DNA of 64,000 nucleotides from an uncultured Hyphomicrobiales bacterium (GCA_964458605.1 CAYWLS010000005.1:81244-145243), one strand, 5' to 3'. Shown: positions 1,601 through 64,000, counted from the first letter of the stretch. Notes: generated from the sequence alone by a model not told the origin. Numbers and translations are program-made.

Positions 1601-2224
1601 TCAGCGGCGCAGCGCGGCGACATAGGCCTGGGCGATGGCGGCCGGGCTGTCGCCGCCGGGCCGATACCACACCGGCGTGGCATTGAGCGCCCCCAGTAGC
1701 ATCAGCCGCAGCAAGCGCCGGTCGCCGCTCCCGGGCAGGGGAAGCGCATCCACCAGGCCGGCGAACAGCTTTTCGTATTCGTCGCGCTGCGCCACCAGCC
1801 GGCGGCGCAGCGAGGGCGAGACGCGGCTGAATTCCTGGCGCACCACGGCGGCGAAATCGTCGGCGCCCAGCAGGCACTGCAATTGCGCCACGCAGGCCGC
1901 TTCCAGCCGGTGCCAGGGATCGTCCAGGCCGTCGATCGCCGCCGTCGCCGCCTCGATCACCCGGCGCACGCCCAGCCCATGGGTGGCCGCCACCAGCTCC
2001 TCCTTGGAGCGGAAATGGTAGTACATCGAGCCGGCCAGCATGCCGGCGGCGCCGGCGATGTCGCGCATCGAGGTGGCTTCGTAGCCGTGCCTGGCGAACA
2101 GCCGGGCCGCCACGCGCAGCAGCCGGTCGCGCCGGTTGTCGGCGTGGCGGATCGGCGCCGCCGATTTGCGCGGGGCGGACCGCCGGGTCTTGCGCTGCGC
2201 CAAGCAACCTCCGTCATTGGCCAA
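1601..2224 (-). CDS. TetR/AcrR family transcriptional regulator
   Basis: N-terminal HTH (RDRLLRVAARLFARHGYEATSMRDIAGAAG). Divergent from the P450 gene. Confidence 0.9.
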   Translation of the reverse strand: MANDGGCLAQRKTRRSAPRKSAAPIRHADNRRDRLLRVAARLFARHGYEATSMRDIAGAAGMLAGSMYYHFRSKEELVAATHGLGVRRVIEAATAAIDGLDDPWHRLEAACVAQLQCLLGADDFAAVVRQEFSRVSPSLRRRLVAQRDEYEKLFAGLVDALPLPGSGDRRLLRLMLLGALNATPVWYRPGGDSPAAIAQAYVAALRR

Positions 2225-2285
2225 ACGATTGTTTGGTAAACGGCCGTGTGGTAGAAATGGCCGTGGCCCATGATGGAGCGGTCCG

Positions 2286-3530
2286 ATGGCGCTTGTCGAG
2301 CCGGCAGCTTACGTATTCGATCTGTCAAACCCGCGCACCAACGCCGATCCCTTCCCGGAATTCGCCCGGTTGCGTGCCGAGGATCCGGTGCACTACTCGC
2401 CGCGCATGAAGGCCTGGATCGTCACGCGCTACGACGACGTCAAGAAGGTGGCGCTCGACAATGCCGGCATCTCCGCCGACCGGCTGACGCCGTTCTTCAA
2501 GGCCAATCCCGAGTTTCAGCGCAACACGGTGTCGGACCTGATGCGCTACATGAACCACTGGATGGTGTTCCGCGATCCGCCCGACCACACCCGCCTGCGC
2601 CGGTTGTTCACCAAGGCCTTCACGCCGACCGCGGTGGCGAACCTGCGGCCCAATATCGTCGAGATCGTCGACCGCCTGATCGTCGGCATGGAGGCCAAGG
2701 CCAAACGCGGCGAGACCGTCGACTACATCGCCGATTTCGCCTATCCGCTGCCCGCCACGGTGATCATGGACCTGCTGGGCGTGCCGCGCGGCGATCTCGA
2801 CCGCGTCAAGGTGTGGTCCGACGACATCGCGCTGTTCATCGGCACCGCGCAGGCGGCCGAGAACAAATACGCCCGCGCCGAACGCGGCGCGACTTTGATG
2901 TCCGGCTATTTCCGCGAACTGGTCGAGCAGCGCAAGGCGGCGCCGACCGGCGACATGATCAGCCAGCTTATCGCCGCGCGCGACGAGAAGGAAATCCTGA
3001 CCACCGACGAGATCATCGGCACCTGCATCCTGCTGCTGTTCGCCGGCCACGAGACCACCACCAACCTGATCGGCAACGGCTTCTACTACTCGATGAAGTT
3101 CCGCGACCAGTGGGAGCGGCTGCTGGCCGAGCGCAGCCTGGCGGGGCGCGCGGTCGAGGAATGGCTGCGCTACGACGGCCCGTCCGGCGCGCTGGCGCGG
3201 GTCGCCGCGCGCGACGTCGAGCTGGGCGGCCGCACCATCCGGGCCGGGCAGCGCGTGTTCGCCTTCGTCAATTCGGCCAATCGCGATCCCGATCAATTCG
3301 CCGACGCCGAGAGCTTCGACGTCGGGCGCAAGGAAAATCCGCACCTGACCTTCGGCCACGGCATCCATTTCTGCCTGGGAGCGCCGCTCGCCCGGCTCGA
3401 GGCCCAGATCGCCATCGACATGCTGGCCGAGCGCCTGCCGCGCATCGCGCTCGACACCGCGCAGATCGACTGGAGCGATTCGCTGATCCTGCGCGGCATC
3501 AGGAAGTTGCCGGTGCGGCTGAACGGTTGA
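2286..3530 (+). CDS. cytochrome P450
   Basis: Heme-thiolate loop FGHGIHFCLGAPLA, I-helix AGHETT, ExxR (EEWLRY). Confidence 0.95.
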   Translation: MALVEPAAYVFDLSNPRTNADPFPEFARLRAEDPVHYSPRMKAWIVTRYDDVKKVALDNAGISADRLTPFFKANPEFQRNTVSDLMRYMNHWMVFRDPPDHTRLRRLFTKAFTPTAVANLRPNIVEIVDRLIVGMEAKAKRGETVDYIADFAYPLPATVIMDLLGVPRGDLDRVKVWSDDIALFIGTAQAAENKYARAERGATLMSGYFRELVEQRKAAPTGDMISQLIAARDEKEILTTDEIIGTCILLLFAGHETTTNLIGNGFYYSMKFRDQWERLLAERSLAGRAVEEWLRYDGPSGALARVAARDVELGGRTIRAGQRVFAFVNSANRDPDQFADAESFDVGRKENPHLTFGHGIHFCLGAPLARLEAQIAIDMLAERLPRIALDTAQIDWSDSLILRGIRKLPVRLNG

Positions 3531-7616: not shown

Positions 7617-7958
7617 CGCATCCCCCCGGACCCGCAGGTTGTACTAACGGTCCGAAGATAACCGCAATGGTTGCCGCCAGCAACGCGGTCGGACCGGCGG
7701 CGGCCGGTTTATCCGCATGACGCGCGCTTATACATCGGCATGGGCAAGAACGATGGTTGCAAATGATAACGGAGAAGAATACGCCGTGCCGCCGGCCGTC
7801 GCGCATCGGTCCCGCATCAGCCTAAAGTATTAGGAAAGGCTCGTTAGCCATTGAATCGAAACGATTCCAGGTTACAAGAAGAGTGGTTGCATCATCGAAC
7901 GGCCGGCAGATTGGTGTATGGTAAAGGGGCGCTGCAGGCGCGCCAATGGGGGGAGAGG

Positions 7959-44273: not shown

Positions 44274-45806
44274 TCACCGCTTCTGCCAATCCCCCAACTG
44301 CTCGACCGCATGGGCGGCGCGGATGGTGGCGGCTTCGTCGAAGTGTTTGCCCACCAGCATGATGCCGATCGGCAGGCCGTCGACCGTGCCGCAGGGCGCG
44401 GTGAAGGCCGGGTGGCCGGACACGTCGAACGGACAGGTGTTCTGCTGCATGTTCAACGCCAGGTCGACATAGTCCTCGCGGCTGGCATCGAGGCCGGGAA
44501 TCTTGGTCGCCGGGAACGGCAGGGTCGGCATGGCCAGCACGTCGTATTTCCGCAGCGCCGCGTCGTAGGCGGCGCGCAGCCCGACGCGCAGGTTCTGCGC
44601 CTTGGCGTGGTAGCGGTTGTGGTAGTGGGTGTGCATGTAGTCGCCCAGCAGCAACACGAGTTTCACCGTCTCCGAGACATCGTCGGCGCGGGCCCGCCAG
44701 CCGCGCGCGAAAGCCTCCTGCAGGGAGGTGGTGTAGTAGCCCATCCAGTTGTTGCCCATGGCGTAGCCCTTGATCATCATCTCGGCCGCGCCTTCCAGGA
44801 TCACCCCGGTCCAGATATGCGGCGCGTCGAGATGCTCGGGGATCGACACCGCCTCGACGATGGCGCCGGCCTTCTTCAATGCCGCCAAGGTCTGCTTCAC
44901 CTTCCTGTCGGTCTGCGGCGTCAGCCTGTTGCCGGTGGGATGGCCGAAACCCTGCGGCAGCACGCCGATCTTCAGGCCCCTGACGCTCTTCTTCAGCGCC
45001 CCGCGATAGTCGCCGACGGCGGCGTTGATGGTGCGCGGATCGTGCGGATCGGGCCCGGCAATGACGCTCAGCAGCAGCGCCACGCTCTCGACGCTGTCGC
45101 AGATCGGCCCGCAGTGATCGACCGAATAGGAGATCGGCATGCTGCCGGTGGTCGGCACCAGGCCCCAGGTGGGCTTCAGCCCGTAGACGCCGCACCAGCC
45201 GGAGGGCGTGCGGATCGAGCCGCCCTGGTCGCCGCCGATCGCCATCGTTACCTCGCCCGCCGCCACCAGCGCGGCGCTGCCGCCGGACGAGCCGCCGGCC
45301 GAATGGGCGGGATTGCGCGGGTTGCGGATCGGCCCGGTGGCGCAGGTGTGGCTGCCGGCGGAGAAGCACAGATCCTCGCAGGCCGCCTTGCCGGCGATGG
45401 TGCCGCCGGCCTCGAGGATGCGCGTCACCACTGTGGCGTCGATATCGGGCACGTAGCCTTCGAGCAGCCGCGAGCCGTTCATCATCGGCACGCCGGCGAC
45501 GCAGATATTGTCCTTGATGGCGACGCGCTTGCCGGCAAGCGGCCCCTTGGCCGCGCCGGCGATGTCGCATTTCCAGTACCAGGCGTTGAACGGATTGTCC
45601 TTCACGTCCGGCCGATGGCCCGGCGTGCGCGGATAGGCGACCGGCAGCTTGGGCTCGGCCAGCTCGTCGAGCCGCGCATAGGACGCCATCGAGCCCGCCA
45701 TCAGGCCACGGAACGACACCGCGTCCTCCTGGGTCAGGGTCAGGCCGAATTTGCGGCCGATGGCGATGAGCTGCTCGGGCGTGGGCAGGCGCGGCGGAAT
45801 GGACAT
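44274..45806 (-). CDS. amidase-signature (AS) family amidase
   Basis: GGSSGGSAA signature and Ser-cisSer-Lys context. 510 aa. Confidence 0.92.
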   Translation of the reverse strand: MSIPPRLPTPEQLIAIGRKFGLTLTQEDAVSFRGLMAGSMASYARLDELAEPKLPVAYPRTPGHRPDVKDNPFNAWYWKCDIAGAAKGPLAGKRVAIKDNICVAGVPMMNGSRLLEGYVPDIDATVVTRILEAGGTIAGKAACEDLCFSAGSHTCATGPIRNPRNPAHSAGGSSGGSAALVAAGEVTMAIGGDQGGSIRTPSGWCGVYGLKPTWGLVPTTGSMPISYSVDHCGPICDSVESVALLLSVIAGPDPHDPRTINAAVGDYRGALKKSVRGLKIGVLPQGFGHPTGNRLTPQTDRKVKQTLAALKKAGAIVEAVSIPEHLDAPHIWTGVILEGAAEMMIKGYAMGNNWMGYYTTSLQEAFARGWRARADDVSETVKLVLLLGDYMHTHYHNRYHAKAQNLRVGLRAAYDAALRKYDVLAMPTLPFPATKIPGLDASREDYVDLALNMQQNTCPFDVSGHPAFTAPCGTVDGLPIGIMLVGKHFDEAATIRAAHAVEQLGDWQKR

Positions 45807-45882
45807 GCTTTCTCCTACTGGCTGGCGCGAGCCGCGGCGAGCGGCCGGCGCTGGCGGAACCGAGCCGGATTAGACGGCGCTT

Positions 45883-45907
45883 TATTTTACTTTTCAATCA
45901 ATTTTGC
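45883..45907 (+). promoter_or_regulatory. AT-rich operator-like motif, copy 2 (between divergent amidase genes)
   Basis: TATTTTACTTTTCAATCAATTTTGC. A CATAAT -10-like hexamer lies at 45915..45920, ahead of ATG 45963. Confidence 0.55.
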
Positions 45908-45962
45908 CCCAGGGCATAATGCGGCGACGCCAACCGCATTTCGCCATTTCGGAGGGAGCATC

Positions 45963-47477
45963 ATGACGATCAAGCGCGCCACTTTGGGCCAGTTGCAGGA
46001 CATCGCCCGCGATCTGGGCATCACCATGACCGACGAGCGCGCCGCCGAATTCCTCGGCCTGATGCAGGGCAATTTCGACGCCTACGAGATCCTCGAGCAG
46101 ATGCCGGACTACAAGCCGGTGGTGAAGTATCCGCGCACGCCCGGCTATCGGCCCGAGGGCGCGGAGAACAAATACAACGCCTGGTACGTCAAGAGCACGG
46201 TCAAGGGCGCCGATTCGGGCAAGCTCAAAGGCAAGACCGTGGTGCTGAAGGACAATGTCTGCCTGGCCGGCGTGCCGATGATGAACGGCGCCTCGACCCT
46301 GGAAGGCTACACGCCCGACATCGACGCCACCATCGTCACGCGCATCCTCGACGCCGGCGGCACCATCGTCGGCAAGGCGCATTGCGAATTCTTCTGCCTG
46401 TCCGGCGGCAGCCACACCAACGCCATTGCCCCGGTGCACAACCCGTGGAAGATGGGCCACTCCGCCGGCGGCTCCTCCTCGGGCTCGGGCGCGCTGGTGG
46501 CGGCGGGCGAGGTCGATATGGCGATCGGCGGCGACCAGGGCGGCTCGATCCGCATGCCCTCCTCGTTCTGCGGCATCTACGGCATGAAGCCGACCCACGG
46601 CCTGGTGCCCTATACCGGGGTGATGCCGATCGAAGCCACGATCGATCACACCGGACCGATGACCAAGGACGTGGCCGACAACGCGCTGATGCTGGAGGTG
46701 CTGGCCGGCGAGGACGGACTCGACCCGCGCCAATACGCGCCCAAGGTGCACGACTACACCAAGGCGCTGGGCAAGGACGTCAAGGGCCTGAAGATCGCCG
46801 TGGTCAAGCAGGGCTTCGGCCACGCCAATTCGGAGAAGGATGTCGACGACTGCGTGCGCGCCGGCGCCGCGCACTTCAAGACGCTGGGCGCCACGGTCGA
46901 GGAGATCGACCTGCCGATGCATGCGCTGGGCCCGGTGATCTGGACGCCGGTGGCGCTGGAAGGCCTGCAGGCGCAGATGATGTGGGGCAATGGCATGGGC
47001 TACAACTGGAAGGGGCTCTACACCACCAGCCTGCTCGACGCCCACGCCAACTGGCGCGCCAGGGCCGACGAGCTGTCGGACAGCCTGAAGATCTCGATGT
47101 TCGTCGGCGAATATTTCATCAAGCACTATCGCGGCCACTACTACGCCAAGGCGCAGAACCTGGCGCGCAAGCTGAAGGCGGCCTACGACGCGGTGCTGGG
47201 CCAGTACGACCTGCTGCTGATGCCGACCCTGCCGGTCAAGTCGACGCCGATCCCGCCGGCCGACGCGCCGCTGGCGCTCTACCTGCAGCGCGCCTTCGAG
47301 ATGATCGGCAACACCGCGCCGTTCGACGTCACCGGCCACCCGTCGATGACCATTCCCTGCGGCCTGCGCGAGGGCCTGCCGGTCGGGCTGATGCTGACGG
47401 GCAGGAGCTACGACGAGCCGACCATCTATCGCGCCGCCCATGCCTTCGAGCAGAGCGGCGACTGGAAGAAGATGTAA
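45963..47477 (+). CDS. amidase-signature (AS) family amidase (paralogue of 44274..45806)
   Basis: ATG 45963 with GGAGGGA RBS, in frame within artefact ORF 44214..47477. GGSSSGSGA signature. Confidence 0.92.
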   Translation: MTIKRATLGQLQDIARDLGITMTDERAAEFLGLMQGNFDAYEILEQMPDYKPVVKYPRTPGYRPEGAENKYNAWYVKSTVKGADSGKLKGKTVVLKDNVCLAGVPMMNGASTLEGYTPDIDATIVTRILDAGGTIVGKAHCEFFCLSGGSHTNAIAPVHNPWKMGHSAGGSSSGSGALVAAGEVDMAIGGDQGGSIRMPSSFCGIYGMKPTHGLVPYTGVMPIEATIDHTGPMTKDVADNALMLEVLAGEDGLDPRQYAPKVHDYTKALGKDVKGLKIAVVKQGFGHANSEKDVDDCVRAGAAHFKTLGATVEEIDLPMHALGPVIWTPVALEGLQAQMMWGNGMGYNWKGLYTTSLLDAHANWRARADELSDSLKISMFVGEYFIKHYRGHYYAKAQNLARKLKAAYDAVLGQYDLLLMPTLPVKSTPIPPADAPLALYLQRAFEMIGNTAPFDVTGHPSMTIPCGLREGLPVGLMLTGRSYDEPTIYRAAHAFEQSGDWKKM

Positions 47478-47547: not shown

Positions 47548-47847
47548 TCAAAGCCGCTGCGATAGGCGGGCTTTGGCGTGGCGGTCTCTCCAGACGCGCT
47601 CGAACGCCTCGCGGCTGATTTCGACGGGCTCAAATACCGGATTGCTGGCGATCTCGGCAAGGGGCGGCACCGGATAGACGCCTAGACCGGTATCGCCGAC
47701 TTCTCCGGTCGCATCGGCATAGCCGCAGCTTCCATCGGCATGAAGCTCGACCTTGCGAACCTCATAGCGCTCCTCGTCCAGCTCGCTATAGAGCCAGACC
47801 GGCAGATCGGCGTCGGAATGGATCCATTTGACCTTGATATCGCGCAT
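47548..47847 (-). CDS. hypothetical 99-aa protein
   Basis: Clean ORF in lower-G+C DNA with an AT-rich divergent promoter shared with kptA. Function not recognised. Confidence 0.6.
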   Translation of the reverse strand: MRDIKVKWIHSDADLPVWLYSELDEERYEVRKVELHADGSCGYADATGEVGDTGLGVYPVPPLAEIASNPVFEPVEISREAFERVWRDRHAKARLSQRL

Positions 47848-47894: not shown

Positions 47895-48444
47895 ATGGCC
47901 AAGACTGACGAATCGCTGAGCAAATATCTCAGCTACATCCTGCGCCACCGGCCCGACGAGATCGGGCTGCAGCTCGATGGGCAGGGTTGGGCCGCGGTGG
48001 CGGAACTGCTGGCCAAGAGCGCGGCGCACGGCCGCCCTATCGACTTCGGCGCTTTGGTGAATGTCGTCGAGAACGGAGCCAAGAGCCTCGTCCTTGTCCG
48101 AAAACCGGACTCGGATCCGCGCATTGCAAGGGCATTCCGTCCCGATCGAGCTTGGCTTGCAGCCGGTGCAGCCGCCCGCGCTTCTGTACCACGGCACCGC
48201 CTTGAAGTTTCTCGATTCGATCCTGCGGACAGGGCTGGCGAAACAGGCGCGCCATCACGTCCATTTGTCGAGCACGCCGGACAGCGCCTGGATCGTCGGG
48301 CGCCGACGCGGCAAGGCCGCGATACTCCAAATACAGGCGGAACGGATGCACCGCGACGGTTTTGCGTTCATGCGAGCCGAGAACGACGTCTGGCTGACCG
48401 ATGCCGTGCCGACGAAGTATTTCAAACTGCTAGCTCAAGATTGA
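47895..48444 (+). pseudogene. kptA: RNA 2'-phosphotransferase KptA/Tpt1, interrupted by a single frameshift
   Basis: The N-terminal part is in the 47895 frame (LSKYLSYILRHRPDEIGLQLDGQGWAAV..VVENGAK). The remainder is in the 48061 frame (SENRTRIRALQGHSV..LLYHGT..HHVHLS..NDVWLT). The junction lies near 48075..48095. Confidence 0.8.
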
Positions 48445-48553
48445 GCCGCGGCGGCGATAGTGGACTCTGGCGATAGTGGACTCTAGAGCCCGACGCTCGC
48501 TTCAGGAACCGACTTTGTCACCCCCCGCATCAGCGTTTTGACCTCCGCCCGCT

Positions 48554-48904
48554 TCATGATAAGCCGAACTGGGCCTTGAATTCGCTCTCGCTGATGACGC
48601 TGACGGGTAGAAACAGCGACTTGTCGTCGGGATCGCGCAAGCCATCGATGTTCAACATGTGCGGCGTCGGCGGATAGGTGCACACGACCTGGGCCACGAA
48701 CGCTTTGCCCGCCAGATCGGGATTGTCCTTGGCCGCGCGGCCGGCTTCGGCGAAGTGCATGCACAGCCCCGGCTTCTTGTGTAGCAGTTCCTCACGCTCA
48801 CGCGGATCGCCGATCGGCTCGTTGTCGAAGATCACCAGCGCCAGGCGGTGGTCGTCGTTGGGCAGCCGCACCACCATGTCGATCGCATCGCTTCTCAGGC
48901 TCAT
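48554..48904 (-). CDS. immunity-like small protein (paralogue of 60865..61257)
   Basis: 116 aa. Shares the identical 13-mer QVVCTYPPTPHML and a C-terminal E.F.AQFG motif with 60865..61257. Downstream of the toxin-like gene. Confidence 0.7.
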   Translation of the reverse strand: MSLRSDAIDMVVRLPNDDHRLALVIFDNEPIGDPREREELLHKKPGLCMHFAEAGRAAKDNPDLAGKAFVAQVVCTYPPTPHMLNIDGLRDPDDKSLFLPVSVISESEFKAQFGLS

Positions 48905-48952
48905 GGTTTCACCGAAAGATAAGAGTTCGGATGGATTGGCATCGGTCAGGCA

Positions 48953-49714
48953 TCAATACCGATCGCGCAGCGACGGCAGATCGCGCGGCACGAAGCCATG
49001 ACGCTCTCGGAATTCGGCCTCGGTCACGAACTCGACCGGCAACACGATATCAGGGTATGTCGGATCGCTTACCGATGTGATCGCGCGCATTGCCGGGGTC
49101 GGCATCGCGGCATAGACAACTTCGATCAACGGCCTATCGCTAGAGAACACATAATTATATTCCTCGAAGTCCCCCGAGGCGACACGAGCGGCGCAGCGCA
49201 GCAGCTTTTCATGCAGCGTTGCCTCTCGCTGTGCGGCGCTGGCCACTCGGCCGTCATCCAGCACTACAATAGTGCCGCCGAGTTGCTGGCCCTTGACGTG
49301 CACAAGGAGATCTCCGGGAGATCGCCCGATCCACGTCAGCCATTCGACGCCCAGCTTGATCCGTTGCTGAACCTCATTTAGGGACAAAATTGTATACGAC
49401 TCGTTACCGGCCCAGACATCATCCCATGCTGGTAAGTGGAGCAGAAGAGGATCAGGACTTCTTCCTCTATAGGCCAATTGCGTGATGAACGGCCGAGGCG
49501 TCCCTGTCGCCGTTGCTAGATTTGCACGATCTTCGGGCAAGTCCCACTCAGATTCGGGCTCGCCGTCAAAATAGAGTTCCAGCCACGCCAAGTCATCAAC
49601 ATTACAATGCAAGACATTATTCCATGCATAGGTTTCTCCAAAATTCCGAAAGCACGCCGTAAGGACGCCGATATCCAGCGGCTTTTTGGAGAAGAAGAAA
49701 AAAGAGTTCGCCAC
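48953..49714 (-). CDS. immunity-like protein, fusion of two domains found as separate genes at 61257..61655 and 60865..61257
   Basis: 253 aa. The N-half aligns to the 132-aa ORF (NESYTILSLNEVQQRIKLGVEW vs NEYGVIFTVREIQRRLKSGEEW). The C-half aligns to the 130-aa ORF (EAEFRERHGF vs LEGFYAQFGM). It begins 15 nt after the toxin stop. Confidence 0.7.
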   Translation of the reverse strand: MANSFFFFSKKPLDIGVLTACFRNFGETYAWNNVLHCNVDDLAWLELYFDGEPESEWDLPEDRANLATATGTPRPFITQLAYRGRSPDPLLLHLPAWDDVWAGNESYTILSLNEVQQRIKLGVEWLTWIGRSPGDLLVHVKGQQLGGTIVVLDDGRVASAAQREATLHEKLLRCAARVASGDFEEYNYVFSSDRPLIEVVYAAMPTPAMRAITSVSDPTYPDIVLPVEFVTEAEFRERHGFVPRDLPSLRDRY

Positions 49715-49729
49715 GTTGAATCCTCAATC

Positions 49730-52384
49730 TCACTTAAATTTATCCAATAAATCCTGACGATTTTTGATAGGTGTATGGCCTTTACCAGCGATAGATTTCT
49801 CCGCGTGCCCCATATTGCGACTATACCCAATCCCGGGCAATCCAGACACACTCACCGCGCGATCAAGTTGCTCCGCAAGTCCACTGGCGCTGCTGCTTTC
49901 TTCAATGACATATTTCCTCGTGACGATATCAACTTCTTTTCTTAAAAGCGGGTTGTTCAAATCGATGATGAAGCAATGCACGCAGACCACTTCGTTTGGG
50001 TGGTTTTTCTCAATCTCATTGGCGAGCCCGGCTACTCGGCGCTGTGACCTGTTTTGGCCTGCATCAATCGCCGTTGCTTGAAATGATCTCGTGCCATCTG
50101 CACTACGCACTTCGCTGCCCTTATCCGCCCGCCAAAGAAACTGGCCAGGTGATTTTGTCGAAGTCGAAGGCATCGGCAACAGAATCGTATCGGGCTTGTA
50201 AGCTGCGGCAAATTTCGCCACATCCGCTTCGGTCTTGATCAAGCCTGCCGACTGAAATGCCTTCATCTGGTCGGCGAAATCGACATGGTAAGCCGGATCG
50301 ATGGCGCGCTTCCATGCCGCCGCCGGACTACCCCATCCGGGCAGCGGCGGCGTTGGGCTTGGCAATGGTCTGCGCGGCGCACCCGGCGGCAGGTCAGTTG
50401 ACGGCTTCGCCCCCGCCGTCACACCCGGCTGCCCGACACTCCCCGGAGATTGACCACCCGGGCTCGGCTGCCCGGACGACGACGATGCAGCACTCGCTGT
50501 ACCTGGCTTTCTCGGCGGCACCGCAGCGGACCCGCCACCGCCGCTGTCGCCGCCGGCCGGGGCGCGGGCGATGCGGCTGCCGAAGCCGCCCATCATTCCC
50601 AGGCCGAAGCCGGTGAAGCCAGCCATCAGCGAATCGATGCCGATCTGAGACCAGGGCACTTCCTCGCCCCATCGCTCCCGCCATGGCTTGGTCAGCGATT
50701 CGCTGGCGGCGGTCTTTGCGCTGACCGCCGCGCCGGTCTTCAGGGCGTCGAGGGCGATTCTTCCGCCCTGCGTCTTGACGACGTTGGCGAGTTCGCCGCT
50801 GCCGATCGCCCGCAGCACGCTGGGAATGCCGATCCGGGCGATGTTGAAGATCTGCTTGCCGGCCATCCCCAGCGGAACGATGTTGGTCGGGTCGCTGACG
50901 AAGCCCAGCGTCTTGCCCGCCGCGCGAATGAACGGATCGTCCGGCGCATGGCCGATCTGATAGATCCGGTCTTGCATGGCGTCGAACAGGTCGGCCTTGG
51001 CTCGCGCTCGCTCCCGCGTCATGAACGGCTCGAACGGCATGGCGCGCTTCAGCTCGGGATCGTTGTTCCACTCCTCTTCGGTCAGGAACTCCACGCCCAT
51101 GCCGCGCAGCGCCTGTTCGATTTCCGCCTGCTTGGCCTTTCGCTGGTCTTCCGGCAGCGCCGCCAGGTACGACGCGAAGCCCTGCCGCACGTCGATCGGC
51201 CAGGGGAAACTGGCGATCTGGTCGGGCTTGCGCTCCCCGTTGAGGACGAGGCCGTAGAGGCGCTTCGTCTTCTCCGCGTCGAGCTGCTGGATTGCCGAAG
51301 GCGGCAAGGCGATCTCGTCGAGACCGCGGCCAACCCATTGGTGGAAGCCTTGCCCTATCTCGGCGCCGAAATAGCGAAAAGTCGGCGCCACATAAGGCTT
51401 GCTGTTCACAACGGCTTCGATATCGCTTGCCGACACCGTCGAGGCTGGCGCCGGCGGCGCAGCGGGTGACGGCGGCGACGCAGCCGTCGAGCCGCTGGCC
51501 GGGATGGTCGATGGATGGTCGCCATCGCCGCTGGCGATCGGACCGATGTCGCCGCCCGGAGGCGTGCCAGCGGCGCCGCCACCGGCGATGTCGTCGCCGC
51601 TGTCCTTGGCAGCGATATAGTTGGCGCCGGCATCGGTGACGGCGGCGAGCCTGGCATAGGTCGCCGGATCGACCTGGCCGGCGGCCTGGGCCAGCACGAT
51701 CCGCGCGCCGGGCACATTGCCGCTGTCGAACTGGCTGGCGATCGCCGCGCCGAACAGATGGCCGTTCCATTCGCTGGCGCGGCGATTGGTTTCCTGCGCG
51801 CTCCAGCCGTTGCGCTGGCCGATCTTGCGCCATTCGCCATCGCCGCGCGCCACCGCCAGATCGAGCCGGAACGGATCGTGGCTCCAGTAATGCGCATCGT
51901 GCAGATCGGCCGCCAGTGTGCCGAGCGATCCCAGGTCGAGCATCTGGCGATGCTGGCCAATGCGATAGCTTTGGCCGTCCTGCAGGTGCTCCTCATGCGC
52001 CTGGTCCAGGCGCGGCTGCAGCAGCGGCAGCACTGCCGGCGAAACGCTGGCGATGGCCTGGTCGCGATGGCTTTCCAAGGTGTTTCGATAGGTGTCGTAG
52101 GCGTCGGCCGCGCCGTTCTGGCCGCTCTGGCTGCCGTAATCGCCCAGCGCCGTCAGCGCGGCGCGGCGATAGACGTTCAGCGCGTCGTTGGCGGCGCTGT
52201 CATTGGCCCTAAGACGTCGGTCGAGCGAATAGGTGCGGTACGGGTCCGGCCCGGCCGGAGCGGTGCCGGACGAGACCGGATCGAACGGGATGATGTCGGT
52301 GCCGGGATCGAGGGCGGTGTCGGGATCGGGAGGGGCGAAGATAAGGGCCATGCGCGTCGCGAGCGTTGGATGGGGTCCGCCCAT
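49730..52384 (-). CDS. large modular polymorphic-toxin-like protein (toxin A), 884 aa
   Basis: Modules: an N-terminal region, a core shared with 61663..63282 (MPFEPFMT.., DPTN.., Gly-rich hydrophobic stretch), Pro/Ser/Gly linkers, and a low-G+C C-terminal domain homologous to the C-terminus of 61663..63282. An alternative start lies at 52351. Confidence 0.75.
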   Translation of the reverse strand: MGGPHPTLATRMALIFAPPDPDTALDPGTDIIPFDPVSSGTAPAGPDPYRTYSLDRRLRANDSAANDALNVYRRAALTALGDYGSQSGQNGAADAYDTYRNTLESHRDQAIASVSPAVLPLLQPRLDQAHEEHLQDGQSYRIGQHRQMLDLGSLGTLAADLHDAHYWSHDPFRLDLAVARGDGEWRKIGQRNGWSAQETNRRASEWNGHLFGAAIASQFDSGNVPGARIVLAQAAGQVDPATYARLAAVTDAGANYIAAKDSGDDIAGGGAAGTPPGGDIGPIASGDGDHPSTIPASGSTAASPPSPAAPPAPASTVSASDIEAVVNSKPYVAPTFRYFGAEIGQGFHQWVGRGLDEIALPPSAIQQLDAEKTKRLYGLVLNGERKPDQIASFPWPIDVRQGFASYLAALPEDQRKAKQAEIEQALRGMGVEFLTEEEWNNDPELKRAMPFEPFMTRERARAKADLFDAMQDRIYQIGHAPDDPFIRAAGKTLGFVSDPTNIVPLGMAGKQIFNIARIGIPSVLRAIGSGELANVVKTQGGRIALDALKTGAAVSAKTAASESLTKPWRERWGEEVPWSQIGIDSLMAGFTGFGLGMMGGFGSRIARAPAGGDSGGGGSAAVPPRKPGTASAASSSSGQPSPGGQSPGSVGQPGVTAGAKPSTDLPPGAPRRPLPSPTPPLPGWGSPAAAWKRAIDPAYHVDFADQMKAFQSAGLIKTEADVAKFAAAYKPDTILLPMPSTSTKSPGQFLWRADKGSEVRSADGTRSFQATAIDAGQNRSQRRVAGLANEIEKNHPNEVVCVHCFIIDLNNPLLRKEVDIVTRKYVIEESSSASGLAEQLDRAVSVSGLPGIGYSRNMGHAEKSIAGKGHTPIKNRQDLLDKFK

Positions 52385-57497: not shown

Positions 57498-57813
57498 TCT
57501 GGATCTCCATCAGGCGTTGGTTGAGATCGGCGTTCTCCTGCTGCAGCCGGACCAGCCGCGCCGCGGTGGCGGCATCGGTCATCGCCTGCCAGGCCTTCAG
57601 CGCGGCGATCGCCTGCCGTTGCTCGAGCGCGGCCTGGGCGGCGATGCGCGTGCGGTAGTCGGCGAACGCCGCGCGCTGCTGCGCCAGCGCGCTGTCGCTG
57701 CGCTGCAGGCGCAAGGTCTGCACGCCCAGCAGCACGGCCAGCGCGATCAGCGGCCATAGCCAAAGCGGCAGCTTGCGCACCGCGGCCAGCGCAAGAGACA
57801 GGCTCGCGCTCAC
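57397..57813 (-). CDS. i-spanin (Rz-like)
   Basis: GTG 57813 overlaps the endolysin-like stop (GTGA). N-terminal TM LPLWLWPLIALAVLLGV is followed by a coiled-coil-like Ala/Gln/Arg-rich region. Confidence 0.7.
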   Translation of the reverse strand: MSASLSLALAAVRKLPLWLWPLIALAVLLGVQTLRLQRSDSALAQQRAAFADYRTRIAAQAALEQRQAIAALKAWQAMTDAATAARLVRLQQENADLNQRLMEIQNAPPEQDGPVADVLCASFSRLWHAPACAADRRH

Positions 57814-58589
57814 GACGTCGCCCTGGCCGGCCGGTTCTTCTGGCGCTGCAGCCACCAGTGCCAGGCCAGGCCGGCGGCGATCAGCGCCAGCAGCGCCACC
57901 CCGCCCCATTTGAACAGATAGCCGTATTGCTGCAGGAACGTCTGGCCGCGCTCGATGACGACGCCGGGATCGATCGGCGCCGGGATCGACCCCGGCGGCG
58001 CGGCCGGCAAGCCGGGCAGCGGCGGCGGATAGGTCGGCGCGATCGCGCTGCCGGTGGCGGCAGCGGTTGCCGCAGCCGCGCCGGCGGCCGGCGCCATCGT
58101 GCCCAGCGGCCTTGGCGGGCGCAGCACGCCGTATTGCGCCAGGCCCCAATCGATCTGCTGGTCGTTCCACCAGCGATAGGGATCGCCGCCCTGCTCGACC
58201 GCGGCCATCGCCAGCAGCACCGGCTTGAGATGCGCGTAGCGATGGAAGTCGAGGACGGCGTTGGCGGCAAAGCCGGTGGCGCCCGTCACGCGCGCGATAT
58301 AGGCGGCGGTGTCGTTGCGATCCTGCGGCGGCGCCCAGCCCGGCCGATAGTCGGGCTGGCCGTAGCTGCCGCTGCCGCCGATCAGCGTCGCGATGGTGTC
58401 GTGGCCCCAGCGGTCGTAATGGGCGATCACGTTGCCCGCCGCGCAGCGCCAGCCCTTGGCCGGCCCGTCGAAATGCAGGAAATCGCCGGCGCCGGTGTGT
58501 TCGACGGCGATCACGCCTTGCCATTTGCTGCGGCCATCGGGTCGCACATTGAGCGGATTGTTGAAGCGCACGCCGGAAGGAAGAGCCAT
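57810..58589 (-). CDS. putative endolysin-like protein with C-terminal TM anchor
   Basis: Positioned between the holin-like and spanin genes. N-terminal RFNNPLNVRP..W.G motif, a Pro/Ala linker and a C-terminal TM WGGVALLALIAAGLAWHWWL. Enzymatic class not established. Confidence 0.5.
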   Translation of the reverse strand: MALPSGVRFNNPLNVRPDGRSKWQGVIAVEHTGAGDFLHFDGPAKGWRCAAGNVIAHYDRWGHDTIATLIGGSGSYGQPDYRPGWAPPQDRNDTAAYIARVTGATGFAANAVLDFHRYAHLKPVLLAMAAVEQGGDPYRWWNDQQIDWGLAQYGVLRPPRPLGTMAPAAGAAAATAAATGSAIAPTYPPPLPGLPAAPPGSIPAPIDPGVVIERGQTFLQQYGYLFKWGGVALLALIAAGLAWHWWLQRQKNRPARATS

Positions 58590-58597
58590 CGGTCACC

Positions 58598-60309
<1,712 letters not shown>

Positions 60310-60864: not shown

Positions 60865-61257
60865 TCAGGTCGGGTTTCGTTCCACAGATTGCGCCGCGCC
60901 GGGCGGCCTCATGCCGAACTGCGCATAGAAACCCTCGAGGCTCATCACCTCGACCGGCACGATCACCGACTTGTCCTCGCGGCTGCGCAACGCATGGATC
61001 TCCAGCATATGCGGTGTCGGCGGATAGGTACAAACTACCTGGATCACCGCCGCCTTGCCGACCACGCTGGCGTCGAAATTCTCCATGGCGCCCGACGTGA
61101 TGATCTTGAGATAGCCGGCGAGCTTCCTGTGCAACAATTGCTCACGCTCACCCGCGTCTGCGATCGGCTCGGCGTCGAAGATCACCATGGCGATACGTCC
61201 GTCTTCGTCCGGCAGCCGCACCGCCATGTCGAGATTGGTCGGTTCGTTCAATGCCAT
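60865..61257 (-). CDS. immunity-like small protein (B2)
   Basis: ATG 61257 overlaps the upstream TAA by 1 nt (TAATG). Paralogue of 48554..48904 (QVVCTYPPTPHML). Confidence 0.7.
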   Translation of the reverse strand: MALNEPTNLDMAVRLPDEDGRIAMVIFDAEPIADAGEREQLLHRKLAGYLKIITSGAMENFDASVVGKAAVIQVVCTYPPTPHMLEIHALRSREDKSVIVPVEVMSLEGFYAQFGMRPPGAAQSVERNPT

Positions 61258-61655
61258 TACAGGAACTCCTCGCCGACCGTCTCCCACTCCTCGCCGGATT
61301 TCAGGCGACGCTGGATTTCCCTTACAGTGAAAATCACGCCGTATTCATTACAAATGAATAAATTATCAGTAGCTGGAAGCCGGCTGACCGCTAAGTTAAC
61401 TGACACCGAGTTTCTGAACGGTAGACCCGCAAAAAAAGGGCGACCAATCAAAGCGAGTAATCTGACCTTCTCATCTGGTTCGAATTCTGCCAGCACAGAA
61501 TCCGTCCCTCCCAAATCGATATGAAACCAACCCCAGTCATCATTCTGAACCACCAACCTTTCACCATAAACCGCAGCTTTGCCAATATCGTGGTACAGAT
61601 CGGCAAGGGCGGGCAGGTCAAGATCTCTCTCGGAAACAATGATCATCTCTTTCAT
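61257..61655 (-). CDS. immunity-like small protein (B1)
   Basis: 132 aa in low-G+C DNA. Starts 7 nt after the toxin B stop. Homologous to the N-half of 48953..49714. Confidence 0.7.
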   Translation of the reverse strand: MKEMIIVSERDLDLPALADLYHDIGKAAVYGERLVVQNDDWGWFHIDLGGTDSVLAEFEPDEKVRLLALIGRPFFAGLPFRNSVSVNLAVSRLPATDNLFICNEYGVIFTVREIQRRLKSGEEWETVGEEFL

Positions 61656-61662
61656 GCGCGCC

Positions 61663-63282
61663 TCATGGTTTGATAACCTCTCTGAGCAGCTTTTCGTCTT
61701 TGGTCACCAGTCCCCCTGCATTGCCAATGCCTCGAATGATGCTAGGACCCAAATCTGGTCCATAGCCGATAGTCGGAAAGCCAGTTAGCTTTTCGTACCG
61801 TAATACTTGATGGGTAAGTTTTCCGCCTGTTCCTGCTTTTACCTGGATCACTGCATTGCGAGTCAAGATATCGATTTCTCCTACTTTATCTCCAGTATGC
61901 GGGTCGATTAGCTCGCAATTAGTGCAAACGACATGTCCCGGATTGTCCCGCTCGATTTCATTGGCGCGGTCAGCTACATGCTTATCGGTCGACGCAAAGC
62001 TTCGTCTGCCATCCTTGCCGATGCTGATCGGGGTCGTTTCCTTTAGCACGAGTTTAGGAGAGGTTATGCCCTTGGCATAGTTGGCCATGCCAAAATGTAC
62101 CTGGTCGGCCCGATATTTGTAGCCGTTGTCGATGAAATCTTGAATAGCGACACCAAACAATTTGTGTTTGTCTGCCAGACTCATCTGATCGAGGAGTTGT
62201 TCGATAGGCGTATTGCCTAATGCACCGGTCACCCGTGCGCCGGATTTTGCAGGAACAGAAGCTACTGAAAGTTGTTGGCTGGTTACTCCGCTCATCCCCG
62301 CAGGTGACTGCGTCGGTACAACGGTGTTTGGGCCTAGCCCAGATGCATTAGCCAAGGGATTTCCTGGAGTAACGCCACTTGGCATGCTCTGAGTTTGTAA
62401 TGAAACTTTCCCGCCAACCGGCTCCTGGGGCGACCGCAGGATGCGGACACCATGGGCGCCCGCGCCCACCACGCTGCCCAGCGCCGCCGCCAGCCCCGCA
62501 TTGCGCCAGATCTCGCTGTCGCTTAGCGTCTCGCCCCAGCGCGCCAGCGGCTGCTTGATCGCATAGCCCTGCACCACCGCCGGCAGCGCGCCGCTCAGCG
62601 CCCCGATGCCGCCAGCCTTCGCCAGTGTCAGGCCACCGGTACGCGCCAGCCCCAGCACCAGCTTGCCTCCCGCGCCCCAGCCCAGCAGGTTGGTCGGGTC
62701 CGCCGCGCCCCCCGCCATCCCCGCCAGGAACCCCAACGTGCCGCTCAGCACGCCATCCGGCCGATGCGCGATCAGCCAGTCCCGCACCCGGTTGGTGTCG
62801 TAGATCGCCGCCTTCGCCTTGGCCCGCGCCGGCGTCATGAACGGCTCGAACGGCATGTCCCGATAGTCCGGCGACGCCCGCCACTCGGCCTCGGTGTAGA
62901 ACCTGTAGCCCGCCTGCTTCAGCACCTGCTCAACCTGCGGCAGGACCTGCTGCCGCTGCCCCGCCGGCAGGGCGTTCAACCGCTCCATGACCAGGTCCTG
63001 CGGCAACGGCGTGCTGGGCATCGCCACCGACGCCCCCGGCTGCCGCGCGGCCACCGGGATCAGGTGCATCACCGTCCTCAACGGCGCCCCGCCGATACCT
63101 GCCAGCGCATTGTCCGGCAGCGATGCTGCCGCCATGAACTGCCCCGGCAGCGAATGCCACCAGCCGTCGCCGAACTTCGCCGCCAGGTACTGGCCCAACG
63201 GCGTCTCGTAATCCGTCAGCGCCTGAAAGTAGTCCCCCGCATCCGCCACACGATCGCTCTCGATCGGATCAAGCAGGTTCAT
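61663..63282 (-). CDS. polymorphic-toxin-like protein (toxin B), 539 aa
   Basis: ATG 63282 overlaps the stop of the upstream gene (ATGA). The core is homologous to toxin A. The low-G+C C-terminal domain has ANEIE, VVCTNC and EIDILTRNAVIQVK motifs. Confidence 0.75.
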   Translation of the reverse strand: MNLLDPIESDRVADAGDYFQALTDYETPLGQYLAAKFGDGWWHSLPGQFMAAASLPDNALAGIGGAPLRTVMHLIPVAARQPGASVAMPSTPLPQDLVMERLNALPAGQRQQVLPQVEQVLKQAGYRFYTEAEWRASPDYRDMPFEPFMTPARAKAKAAIYDTNRVRDWLIAHRPDGVLSGTLGFLAGMAGGAADPTNLLGWGAGGKLVLGLARTGGLTLAKAGGIGALSGALPAVVQGYAIKQPLARWGETLSDSEIWRNAGLAAALGSVVGAGAHGVRILRSPQEPVGGKVSLQTQSMPSGVTPGNPLANASGLGPNTVVPTQSPAGMSGVTSQQLSVASVPAKSGARVTGALGNTPIEQLLDQMSLADKHKLFGVAIQDFIDNGYKYRADQVHFGMANYAKGITSPKLVLKETTPISIGKDGRRSFASTDKHVADRANEIERDNPGHVVCTNCELIDPHTGDKVGEIDILTRNAVIQVKAGTGGKLTHQVLRYEKLTGFPTIGYGPDLGPSIIRGIGNAGGLVTKDEKLLREVIKP

Positions 63283-64000
63283 TGCGGCAGCCCATCGATG
63301 GCGTAGCTGGGGAGCTGATACTGCGCAGGGTAGCCCAATAGCATCCCGGGAGGCAGCACCGCCCAATCGCGGTGCTCCTTGCCGAGCGCCAGCACTTGAT
63401 CAAGTGTGAAGACGAGCGGGCGGCCGGTTTCGTCCGGCAGCAACTTGCCGCTGCTCAACACCAACGCATATTCGCCGTCCTTGCCGCTCTTGAAATCGAT
63501 CCAGCGGGCCTTGGCGCTCTCTTGCGCTGCCGTTGCTTTGGCCATTTCCACCAGTTGCGAATCATCCTCGGGCAATCGCTTGAGGAAGTAGTTGGCGATC
63601 AGTTGGCCGCGCAAATAGTGAAATCCTTGAATCAGGCGTTCTTTATCCCCTTCCGCCGCCCGAGGAATGAATGCCGCCACCAAATTCTGATCGATCAACG
63701 GCACACGATCGCCCATCACCGCGCCAATTCCCGCGCCTGGATCGGGCCGATCGCGCGCTACATTGGCGATCATCGTCGCTTCTTCTATGCCCCTGTTGCG
63801 ATAGTCTTCGTTATGCGTCCATTGTGTCGTCATCTCGTAAACGGCAAAATATGGCGCAAACGGACTCATCTTGCGAAGCAGGTCGGCATGCTCGTCTGGG
63901 CTCAGCTTATGATGGGCGACGATGCTGGATTGAAGGAGATCCAGGGCTCCATCCTCATTGCCGCGACCGGCGGCCTGCACTATGTAGGGCAGCGTCTTGG
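63279..64000 (-). CDS. hypothetical protein translationally coupled to toxin B, 5' end outside window
   Basis: The reading frame is open to the window edge. No family recognised. Confidence 0.6.
   Translation of the reverse strand, partial: KTLPYIVQAAGRGNEDGALDLLQSSIVAHHKLSPDEHADLLRKMSPFAPYFAVYEMTTQWTHNEDYRNRGIEEATMIANVARDRPDPGAGIGAVMGDRVPLIDQNLVAAFIPRAAEGDKERLIQGFHYLRGQLIANYFLKRLPEDDSQLVEMAKATAAQESAKARWIDFKSGKDGEYALVLSSGKLLPDETGRPLVFTLDQVLALGKEHRDWAVLPPGMLLGYPAQYQLPSYAIDGLPQ

Follow-up and report, generated by a model that had tools for sequence, protein, structure and literature searches.

Polymorphic toxin systems such as Rhs and contact-dependent inhibition (CDI) combine a variable C-terminal toxin domain with a conserved carrier, place an immunity gene immediately downstream on the same strand and swap their 3' tips as cassettes (Zhang et al. 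2012, PMC3482391). Here, we analyze two loci of this kind, A and B, in a 64,000-nucleotide stretch of DNA (the window) from an uncultured Hyphomicrobiales bacterium (GCA_964458605.1, CAYWLS010000005.1:81244-145243). Each locus holds a large gene (toxin A or toxin B), whose last ~140 residues belong to a shared family that we name ToxCTD, followed by small immunity-type genes: A1 and A2 in locus A, B1 and B2 in locus B. The two domains that B1 and B2 encode separately are joined in A1. Overall, we consider it probable, if well short of certain, that the loci are polymorphic toxin-immunity modules in which B1 provides the cognate immunity and B2 is an accessory.

Several other described systems bear on these loci. 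In Streptococcus suis' type VII secretion system (T7SS), immunity proteins end in a DUF6572 part ('EIC-CR') that does not neutralize the toxin but promotes its export, a mechanism that relies on EssC, the ATPase of the T7SS, together with a YxxxD/E signal (PMC12558993). Polyimmunity proteins carry several immunity domains per polypeptide and are usually encoded in operons that lack a toxin gene (PMC3482391). The frequent fusion of Imm71 with Imm72, both of which are linked to Ntox48, was described in the same survey (Zhang et al. 2012). Finally, the prophage-encoded toxin Bxa is accompanied by two downstream proteins, Bsi and BAH (PMC11699363).

The window loci and their relatives share the architecture of polymorphic toxins, including 3'-tip cassette swaps, orphan immunity genes or tip remnants downstream (loci L005, L008 and L013) and the occurrence of the same tip on Rhs proteins elsewhere. 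They differ in that ToxCTD and B1 match no Pfam or NCBIfam model, in that the carrier shared by toxins A and B lacks any recognized trafficking domain and in that a DUF6572 module accompanies the immunity domain. Like the MSE-ExT/EI proteins of the S. suis T7SSb (PMC12558993), A1 and about 12 fused clusters combine a specific N-terminal part with a C-terminal DUF6572, the latter being the more conserved, or more resident, of the two. DUF6572 is dispensable for neutralization in S. suis and would, by analogy, be so here. In contrast to S. suis, the genome is high in guanine plus cytosine (GC), relatives were found mostly in Proteobacteria, DUF6572 is additionally encoded by an overlapping gene of its own and by a conserved free copy (A2), and matches to the family model PF20212 stay below its threshold.

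Comparison with the remaining systems gave a mixed picture. A B1-B2-B1-B2 open reading frame (ORF) in relative L002 fits polyimmunity, whereas A1 directly follows a toxin gene and one of its domains is perhaps not an immunity domain at all. With Imm71-Imm72, the loci share unrelated small domains that occur both as neighboring genes and in one polypeptide; however, experimental evidence from S. suis speaks against a neutralizing role of the DUF6572 partner, and the pairing keeps one order, B1 followed by B2, instead of being combinatorial. The Bxa system resembles locus B in its two downstream proteins per toxin and its prophage-associated setting, but BAH is an enzyme reversing the modification made by the toxin, and nothing suggests enzymatic activity for B1 or B2. 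Lastly, ToxCTD recalls the Tox-REase families in its predicted alpha-beta-beta-beta-alpha-beta core, its E..D..(Q/E)xK motif and its weak structural matches to nucleases; unlike them, it matches no Tox-REase Pfam model, and toxin A lacks the motif lysine.

The toxin tip directly precedes B1-type genes in many loci

The elements of the two loci are as follows (positions are those of the window; aa, amino acids).

Locus A
49730..52384, minus strand: toxin A, 884 aa, ORF with N-terminal region, conserved carrier core, Gly/Pro/Ser-rich linker and ToxCTD
about 49733..50197, minus strand: ToxCTD of toxin A (ToxCTD profile E 2e-71; GC 0.495)
48953..49714, minus strand: A1, 253 aa, B1+B2 fusion (ORF and BLASTP)
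49331..49714, minus strand: A1 N-half, B1-type, putative toxin-neutralizing immunity domain (B1 profile E 4e-43; GC 0.508)
48953..49330, minus strand: A1 C-half including the stop codon, divergent DUF6572, B2-type (B2 profile E 4e-54; GC 0.60)
48956..49012, minus strand: A1 C-terminal tail F235-Y253, FRERHGFVPRDLPSLRDRY (motif specific to fused proteins; its start is a cassette breakpoint)
48554..48904, minus strand: A2, 116 aa, stand-alone DUF6572-type gene (53% identity to B2)
47548..47847, minus strand: DUF6881 gene (PF21812, 114 bits) in a variable slot downstream of locus A

Locus B
61663..63282, minus strand: toxin B, 539 aa, carrier core and ToxCTD (start from an ATGA overlap)
about 61666..62100, minus strand: ToxCTD of toxin B (ToxCTD profile E 3e-66; GC 0.494)
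61257..61655, minus strand: B1, 132 aa, stand-alone immunity-type gene (ORF 7 nucleotides past the toxin B stop; GC 0.486)
60865..61257, minus strand: B2, 130 aa, stand-alone divergent DUF6572 (PF20212, 25.6 bits, E 1.6e-5; GC 0.613)

To place B1, loci were retrieved with a motif taken from a six-sequence B1 alignment, which samples only the [IV]DNDHGLI subfamily. Among 18 unique informative loci, 11 carried ToxCTD directly upstream of a B1-only gene (<=200 nucleotides, same strand), two of them on Rhs carriers. These loci derive from Gamma- and Betaproteobacteria, Lysobacteraceae and Clostridia. Because ToxCTD directly precedes B1 in 11 of 18 cases, we read B1 as very probably the cognate immunity protein of ToxCTD, with a putative neutralizing role. 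An earlier, sequence-only reading of the window had taken the small genes for immunity-like genes and had called for co-occurrence statistics with the toxin C-terminal family; this adjacency, together with the repeated linkage of B1 and B2 described below, supports that view, within a polymorphic toxin locus. In locus L013, a 70-aa ToxCTD remnant (7708..7917) lies ahead of the B1 gene and looks like a trace of an earlier cassette displacement.

The breadth of the families was assessed by an exhaustive profile search, which returned 290 representatives at E <= 1e-3, and subsequent local reclassification of the retrieved proteins:

B1 only: 51 representatives
B2 only: 70 representatives
B2 plus extra sequence: 22 representatives
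fused B1+B2: about 12 representatives

Word-indexed homology searches gave eight relatives for A1 and two for B1, and the corresponding search with toxin A was swamped by low-complexity words and returned toxin A alone. Neither Pfam nor NCBIfam gave a match for the 51 B1-only proteins, and no PDB relative was found for them. The sequence-only reading could place neither domain in a named family; after the Pfam profile search that it had suggested, this still applies to B1 but no longer to B2, which scores close to the PF20212 threshold and proved to be a divergent DUF6572.

Pairwise BLASTP bore out the relationships within the window. A1 residues 9-127 align to B1 (29% identity, E 3e-13) and residues 148-243 to B2 (28%, E 1e-10), so that A1 is, as had been proposed, a single protein with a B1-like N-half and a B2-like C-half. 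A2, described before as an extra B2-type gene, is 53% identical to B2 (E 3e-40), with the 13-mer QVVCTYPPTPHML exact in both, and 26% identical to the A1 C-half (E 7e-12). Upstream, toxin A residues 331-884 are homologous to toxin B residues 53-566 (28%, E 2e-43). All coordinates and similarities given earlier for the four small ORFs hold, as does the overlap of B1 and B2 in TAATG: the junction reads CTG-TAATG-GCA, with overlapping stop and start codons, which is consistent with translational coupling. A1 starts with GTG, 15 nucleotides past the toxin A stop and with GAGGA upstream. The start of toxin B had to be moved from TTG 63366 to ATG 63282, where it overlaps in ATGA with the stop of an upstream minus-strand ORF (63279..64000) that runs off the window end. 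We also considered that toxin B might be a frameshifted longer gene and rejected this, as the ORF upstream shows no relationship to the N-terminus of toxin A and ATGA gives a clean start.

The toxin tip is a probable nuclease

Neither toxin A nor toxin B has a match in Pfam, NCBIfam or PADLOC. The conserved columns of ToxCTD give E..D..(Q/E)VK and are kept in 12 of 13 aligned sequences; D is invariant, and K and the helix positions A41 and I44 are at least 90% conserved. A medium-quality AlphaFold2 model of the toxin B domain, predicted from a two-sequence alignment (predicted local distance difference test (pLDDT) 74), shows an alpha-beta-beta-beta-alpha-beta order that fits the restriction-endonuclease fold, and the best Foldseek matches were NucS/EndoMS, Card1 and Can2 nucleases (E 5e-3 to 0.1). 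Motif and model together suggest that ToxCTD is a PD-(D/E)xK-type nuclease with this fold, an assignment that is probable but not established.

Toxin A stands alone among the 13 sequences in having no near-invariant motif lysine, its motif region reading VIE-ESS instead of IQVK, with a one-residue gap. Toxin A is therefore possibly an inactive or altered toxin; it still precedes an intact immunity gene. Besides the carriers of the window, ToxCTD also terminates two Rhs proteins, in L015 and L025.

Tip and immunity domain change together in relatives of locus A

The toxin bodies of relatives L002 and L008 share 90-94% identity with toxin A as far as window positions 50139 and 50512, respectively. 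Past these points identity collapses, and it resumes at 49126 (L002) and 49012 (L008), inside the 3' part of the fused gene; position 49012 is the start of the conserved A1 tail. In L005, a lysozyme-like domain forms the end of the toxin-like gene upstream, a 183-aa protein carrying a signal peptide comes next, and the fused gene is left as an orphan. ToxCTD behaves as a true polymorphic toxin tip on a conserved carrier. Downstream of its A2 copy, L008 contains a further B1-only gene (2092..2550) and a second fused gene (2596..3399; 267 aa, with a tail ending PSLRKV), which look like traces of earlier cassette displacement.

A second variable site lies next to locus A, between kptA and a pair of amidase-family genes. 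In the window, this slot is occupied by the DUF6881 gene, in L002 (2767..4311) by one 514-aa B1-B2-B1-B2 ORF with no adjacent toxin and in L005 (3485..4939) by a B1-like gene, a clear DUF6572 gene and a DUF6881 gene. DUF6881, of which we found no mention in the literature searched, may be another immunity-type family, and its gene in the window possibly a further orphan. The kptA/Tpt1 (RNA 2'-phosphotransferase) gene (47895..48476, plus strand) lies on the opposite strand within the toxin locus and is kept in L001, L002 and L005. Compared with the intact 183-aa L002 protein, the window copy is split over two frames (residues 1-63 and 68-183), pointing to a frameshift or sequencing error near 48085-48095. 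The amidase-family genes stand back to back (44274..45806, minus strand, and about 45.9..47.48 kb, plus strand; region 44274..47477), and those of L002 are followed by a HipA-type toxin with a helix-turn-helix partner.

B2-type domains are divergent DUF6572 and appear to follow the carrier

Against the Pfam gathering threshold of PF20212 (DUF6572), 27 bits, B2 (25.6 bits) and A2 (19.5 bits) fall short, and the A1 C-half gives no match. However, a profile of B2-type proteins reaches, at E 1e-12, the unambiguous DUF6572 protein encoded in L005, which scores 111 bits to PF20212, and PF20212 is matched by 21 of the 28 fused or extended proteins obtained with the A1-family profile (22 of which are B2 plus extra sequence), with E-values down to 1e-11. 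By profile comparison, B2, A2 and the A1 C-half are divergent DUF6572. This family is also joined to unrelated partners, for example ankyrin repeats, Yip1 and DUF1444, and five stand-alone members (P0052, P0068, P0069, P0085 and P0107) share the C-terminal peptide PWW(R/K)(F/L/I)W, a second short tail motif beside the PRDLPSLR of the fused proteins.

Several lines of evidence set B2 apart from the toxin tip and B1. B2 was seen in none of the 20 motif-retrieved B1 loci having sequence downstream of B1. In a window with an overall GC of 0.67, both loci show a shift in composition precisely where the B1 part meets the B2 part: in locus A, from 0.495 (ToxCTD) and 0.508 (B1-type half) to 0.60 to 0.62 (A1 C-half and A2), and in locus B, from 0.494 (ToxCTD) and 0.486 (B1) to 0.613 (B2). 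The rest of the toxin A gene has a GC of 0.68, compared with 0.495 for its tip. B2 composition (0.60-0.62) is thus host-like, unlike that of the toxin tip and B1 (0.49-0.51). Moreover, the pre-toxin region of toxins A or B is common to the B2-linked loci with readable pre-toxin sequence (both window loci, L002, L008 and L010), and was found in none of the eight B2-less ToxCTD proteins tested.

The stand-alone copy A2 is kept in every relative of locus A (L001, L002, L005, L008 and L009), and the P0003 contig likewise carries it as a 116-aa gene. Across five loci with differing toxin tips and fused immunity proteins, its ratio of non-synonymous to synonymous substitution rates (dN/dS) is 0.10-0.18, which indicates purifying selection. 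In a crude neighbor-joining tree, its nearest relative is the split-type B2 of locus B and not the A1 C-half. Absence from 20 loci, the GC shift, the link to the carrier and selection on A2 together argue that B2 lies outside the neutralizing unit. Since DUF6572 in S. suis is non-neutralizing and export-promoting, we read B2 as most likely an accessory or adaptor tied to this carrier protein rather than half of a two-part immunity.

B1 and B2 are linked repeatedly, and the fusion is old

Four independent split B1/B2 pairs were found. Those of locus B, L010 and L034/35 have overlapping stop and start codons, and in the fourth, a second pair within L005, the genes are ~30 nucleotides apart. The AlphaFold2 model of the fused A1 is compact (pLDDT 87; predicted template modelling score 0.85).

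Fused proteins are nearly monophyletic in both domain trees (crude neighbor-joining) and carry a private tail, P(R/L)D(L/F)PSLR, present in 12 of 13 fused proteins and in none of 145 others. This tail persists among fused members that are only about 20% identical to each other, and A1 F235-R252 differs from the L009 counterpart by seven synonymous and no non-synonymous changes in 18 codons. We therefore discarded the idea that the A1 tail is a mere recombination scar: it is kept at the protein level despite synonymous changes and across such divergent proteins. The sequence-only reading had spoken of domain fusion and fission between the two loci. The contrast between a fused and a split form is real, but because the fused proteins form an old, nearly monophyletic clade with its own tail, a recent event between these loci is not; the window holds two old lineages of the same pair.

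A proposed mechanism and competing explanations

In our preferred explanation, toxin proteins would bear an exchangeable ToxCTD, probably a PD-(D/E)xK-type nuclease, which B1, free in locus B or as the N-half of A1, would bind and block in the producing cell. ToxCTD and B1 would make up a low-GC cassette, which recombination would exchange at the end of the carrier gene. The DUF6572-type domains of B2, the A1 C-half and A2 would belong to the resident locus and its carrier instead of the cassette and would be unneeded for neutralization. B2 most likely associates with B1, either as a separate subunit made from the overlapping gene or as a fused domain; it might act as an adaptor or chaperone handing the toxin-immunity complex to the exporter of the carrier, or as a stabilizer of B1. 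The fused form would have arisen once, and its tail PRDLPSLR may function as a peptide for docking or as a clasp within the molecule. An extension of this idea, which we put forward tentatively and regard as rather doubtful, is that DUF6572 is a general, secretion-system-independent hand-over module that follows the carrier and export route, not the toxin, and grips the cognate immunity domain, whether fused to it or as a subunit encoded by an overlapping gene. The C-terminal peptides (PRDLPSLR, and PWW(R/K)xW in some free forms) would then be candidate docking signals for bringing the toxin-immunity complex to the export or packaging machinery, which at locus B could be a phage-like particle.

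Alternatively, B2/DUF6572 may itself be an independent immunity domain against another toxin, making the B1-B2 fusion and the four-domain ORF of L002 polyvalent immunity proteins that arose when adjacent immunity genes were joined, and A2 an orphan retained as a protection from the toxins of neighbors. We grade this as a serious rival, if a somewhat improbable one. Polyimmunity proteins and strings of orphan immunity genes behind toxins are well documented (PMC3482391), and the immunity proteins listed downstream of LXG toxins include DUF6572 proteins (PMC13253547). The four-domain ORF of L002 without an adjacent toxin, the extra downstream B1-type, fused and DUF6572 genes of L008 and L005 and the purifying selection on A2 without a B1 partner would all be in keeping with it. 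Yet the sole experimental test of DUF6572 showed no neutralizing activity (PMC12558993), no second toxin domain was found in toxin A or B, and B2 is tied specifically to B1 by overlapping codons in three independent pairs, not in mixed arrays, while the fused clade has long kept its two-domain order and private tail. The sequence-only reading saw in the fusion a Rosetta stone and argued that the two domains act together, for example as a two-part immunity or adaptor. A heterodimeric immunity protein, with B1 and B2 jointly inhibiting ToxCTD in this lineage, has precedents in Imm71-Imm72 with Ntox48 (PMC3482391) and in the two immunity proteins against Bxa (PMC11699363), and the overlapping codons, consistent with translational coupling, as well as the recurrent fusion and compact two-domain model speak for it. 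Against it, ToxCTD occurs with B1 alone in 11 loci, including Rhs toxins, B2 differs in composition from ToxCTD and B1, and A2 persists in L005, where the tip consists of a lysozyme-like domain that has an immunity protein to itself. As B1-only genes follow the tip in 11 of 18 loci, B2 appears in 0 of 20, DUF6572 has other partners and is dispensable in S. suis, we regard obligate two-part immunity as distinctly unlikely; of the original claim, the repeated B1-B2 linkage stands, and the adaptor option, which we favor, fits better.

The surroundings of locus B raise a further alternative, in which toxin B is an ejected internal virion protein of a prophage and B1 and B2 protect the virion-producing or lysogenic cell or, as assembly chaperones, load toxin B into particles. 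Locus B is followed by a tail-fiber-like gene (58852..60288, minus strand; phrog_1640, E 2e-23), which encodes Gly_rich_2 as well as collagen-like stretches, and by a gene resembling endolysins (57810..58589, minus strand; phrog_873, E 6e-26). Toxin B residues 211-337 match phrog_342, an internal virion protein (E 1e-7), and, like ejection proteins, the product of the toxin-like gene of L005 has a lysozyme-like domain at its end. The region may be a prophage or tailocin with a toxin-tipped ejection protein. However, the neighborhood of locus A consists of housekeeping genes and includes no phage genes, neither 50,697 phage records nor IMG/VR yielded a relative of the carrier, and the phrog_342 match falls in a glycine-rich hydrophobic stretch and perhaps reflects composition only. 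A phage function appears very unlikely to us as the explanation of the system, and for B1 it would be compatible with the explanation that we prefer.

A number of observations weigh against our preferred explanation. The resemblance of the ToxCTD structure to nucleases is marginal (E 5e-3 at best, none <=1e-3), and the ToxCTD profile also matches a tandem PepSY-domain protein (PDB 9vy3_A, E 5e-5) over profile positions 12-79, which span the helix and the PG-x-V...DI strands. This may be a chance resemblance between the first half of ToxCTD and a PepSY-like alpha+beta unit, or the two may share ancestry. It is because the Foldseek matches are weak and the PepSY match competes that we call the nuclease assignment only probable. 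As toxin A has no motif lysine, A1 may guard a dead or altered toxin. In L002, A1 residues 130-196, in the B2 half, are as variable as B1, so that this half in part moves with the cassette. Few, closely related loci underlie the correlation of B2 with the carrier, and the B2-less sample was drawn from the single B1 subfamily named above. Finally, an alignment inspected by eye showed the YxxxD/E signal in some relatives (for example P0004 and P0005) but not in B2, A2 or A1, and no T7SS or EssC gene turned up among the ORFs scanned.

Significance

Taken as a whole, the two loci depart modestly from toxin-immunity systems of a well-known kind. The toxin tip and B1 represent two widespread families without a Pfam or NCBIfam model, B1 comprising 51 representative clusters at 50% identity in Proteobacteria and Clostridia. 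The same toxin-immunity pair occurs with or without DUF6572, and fused or split, and the role of DUF6572 is therefore directly testable. So far, this domain has been studied only in the Streptococcus T7SS. If it serves toxin handling in Gram-negative bacteria, its function would not be limited to EssC binding, and if the hand-over reading were true, a mechanism known only from the T7SS of a Firmicute would extend to Proteobacteria and possibly to phage-borne toxins.

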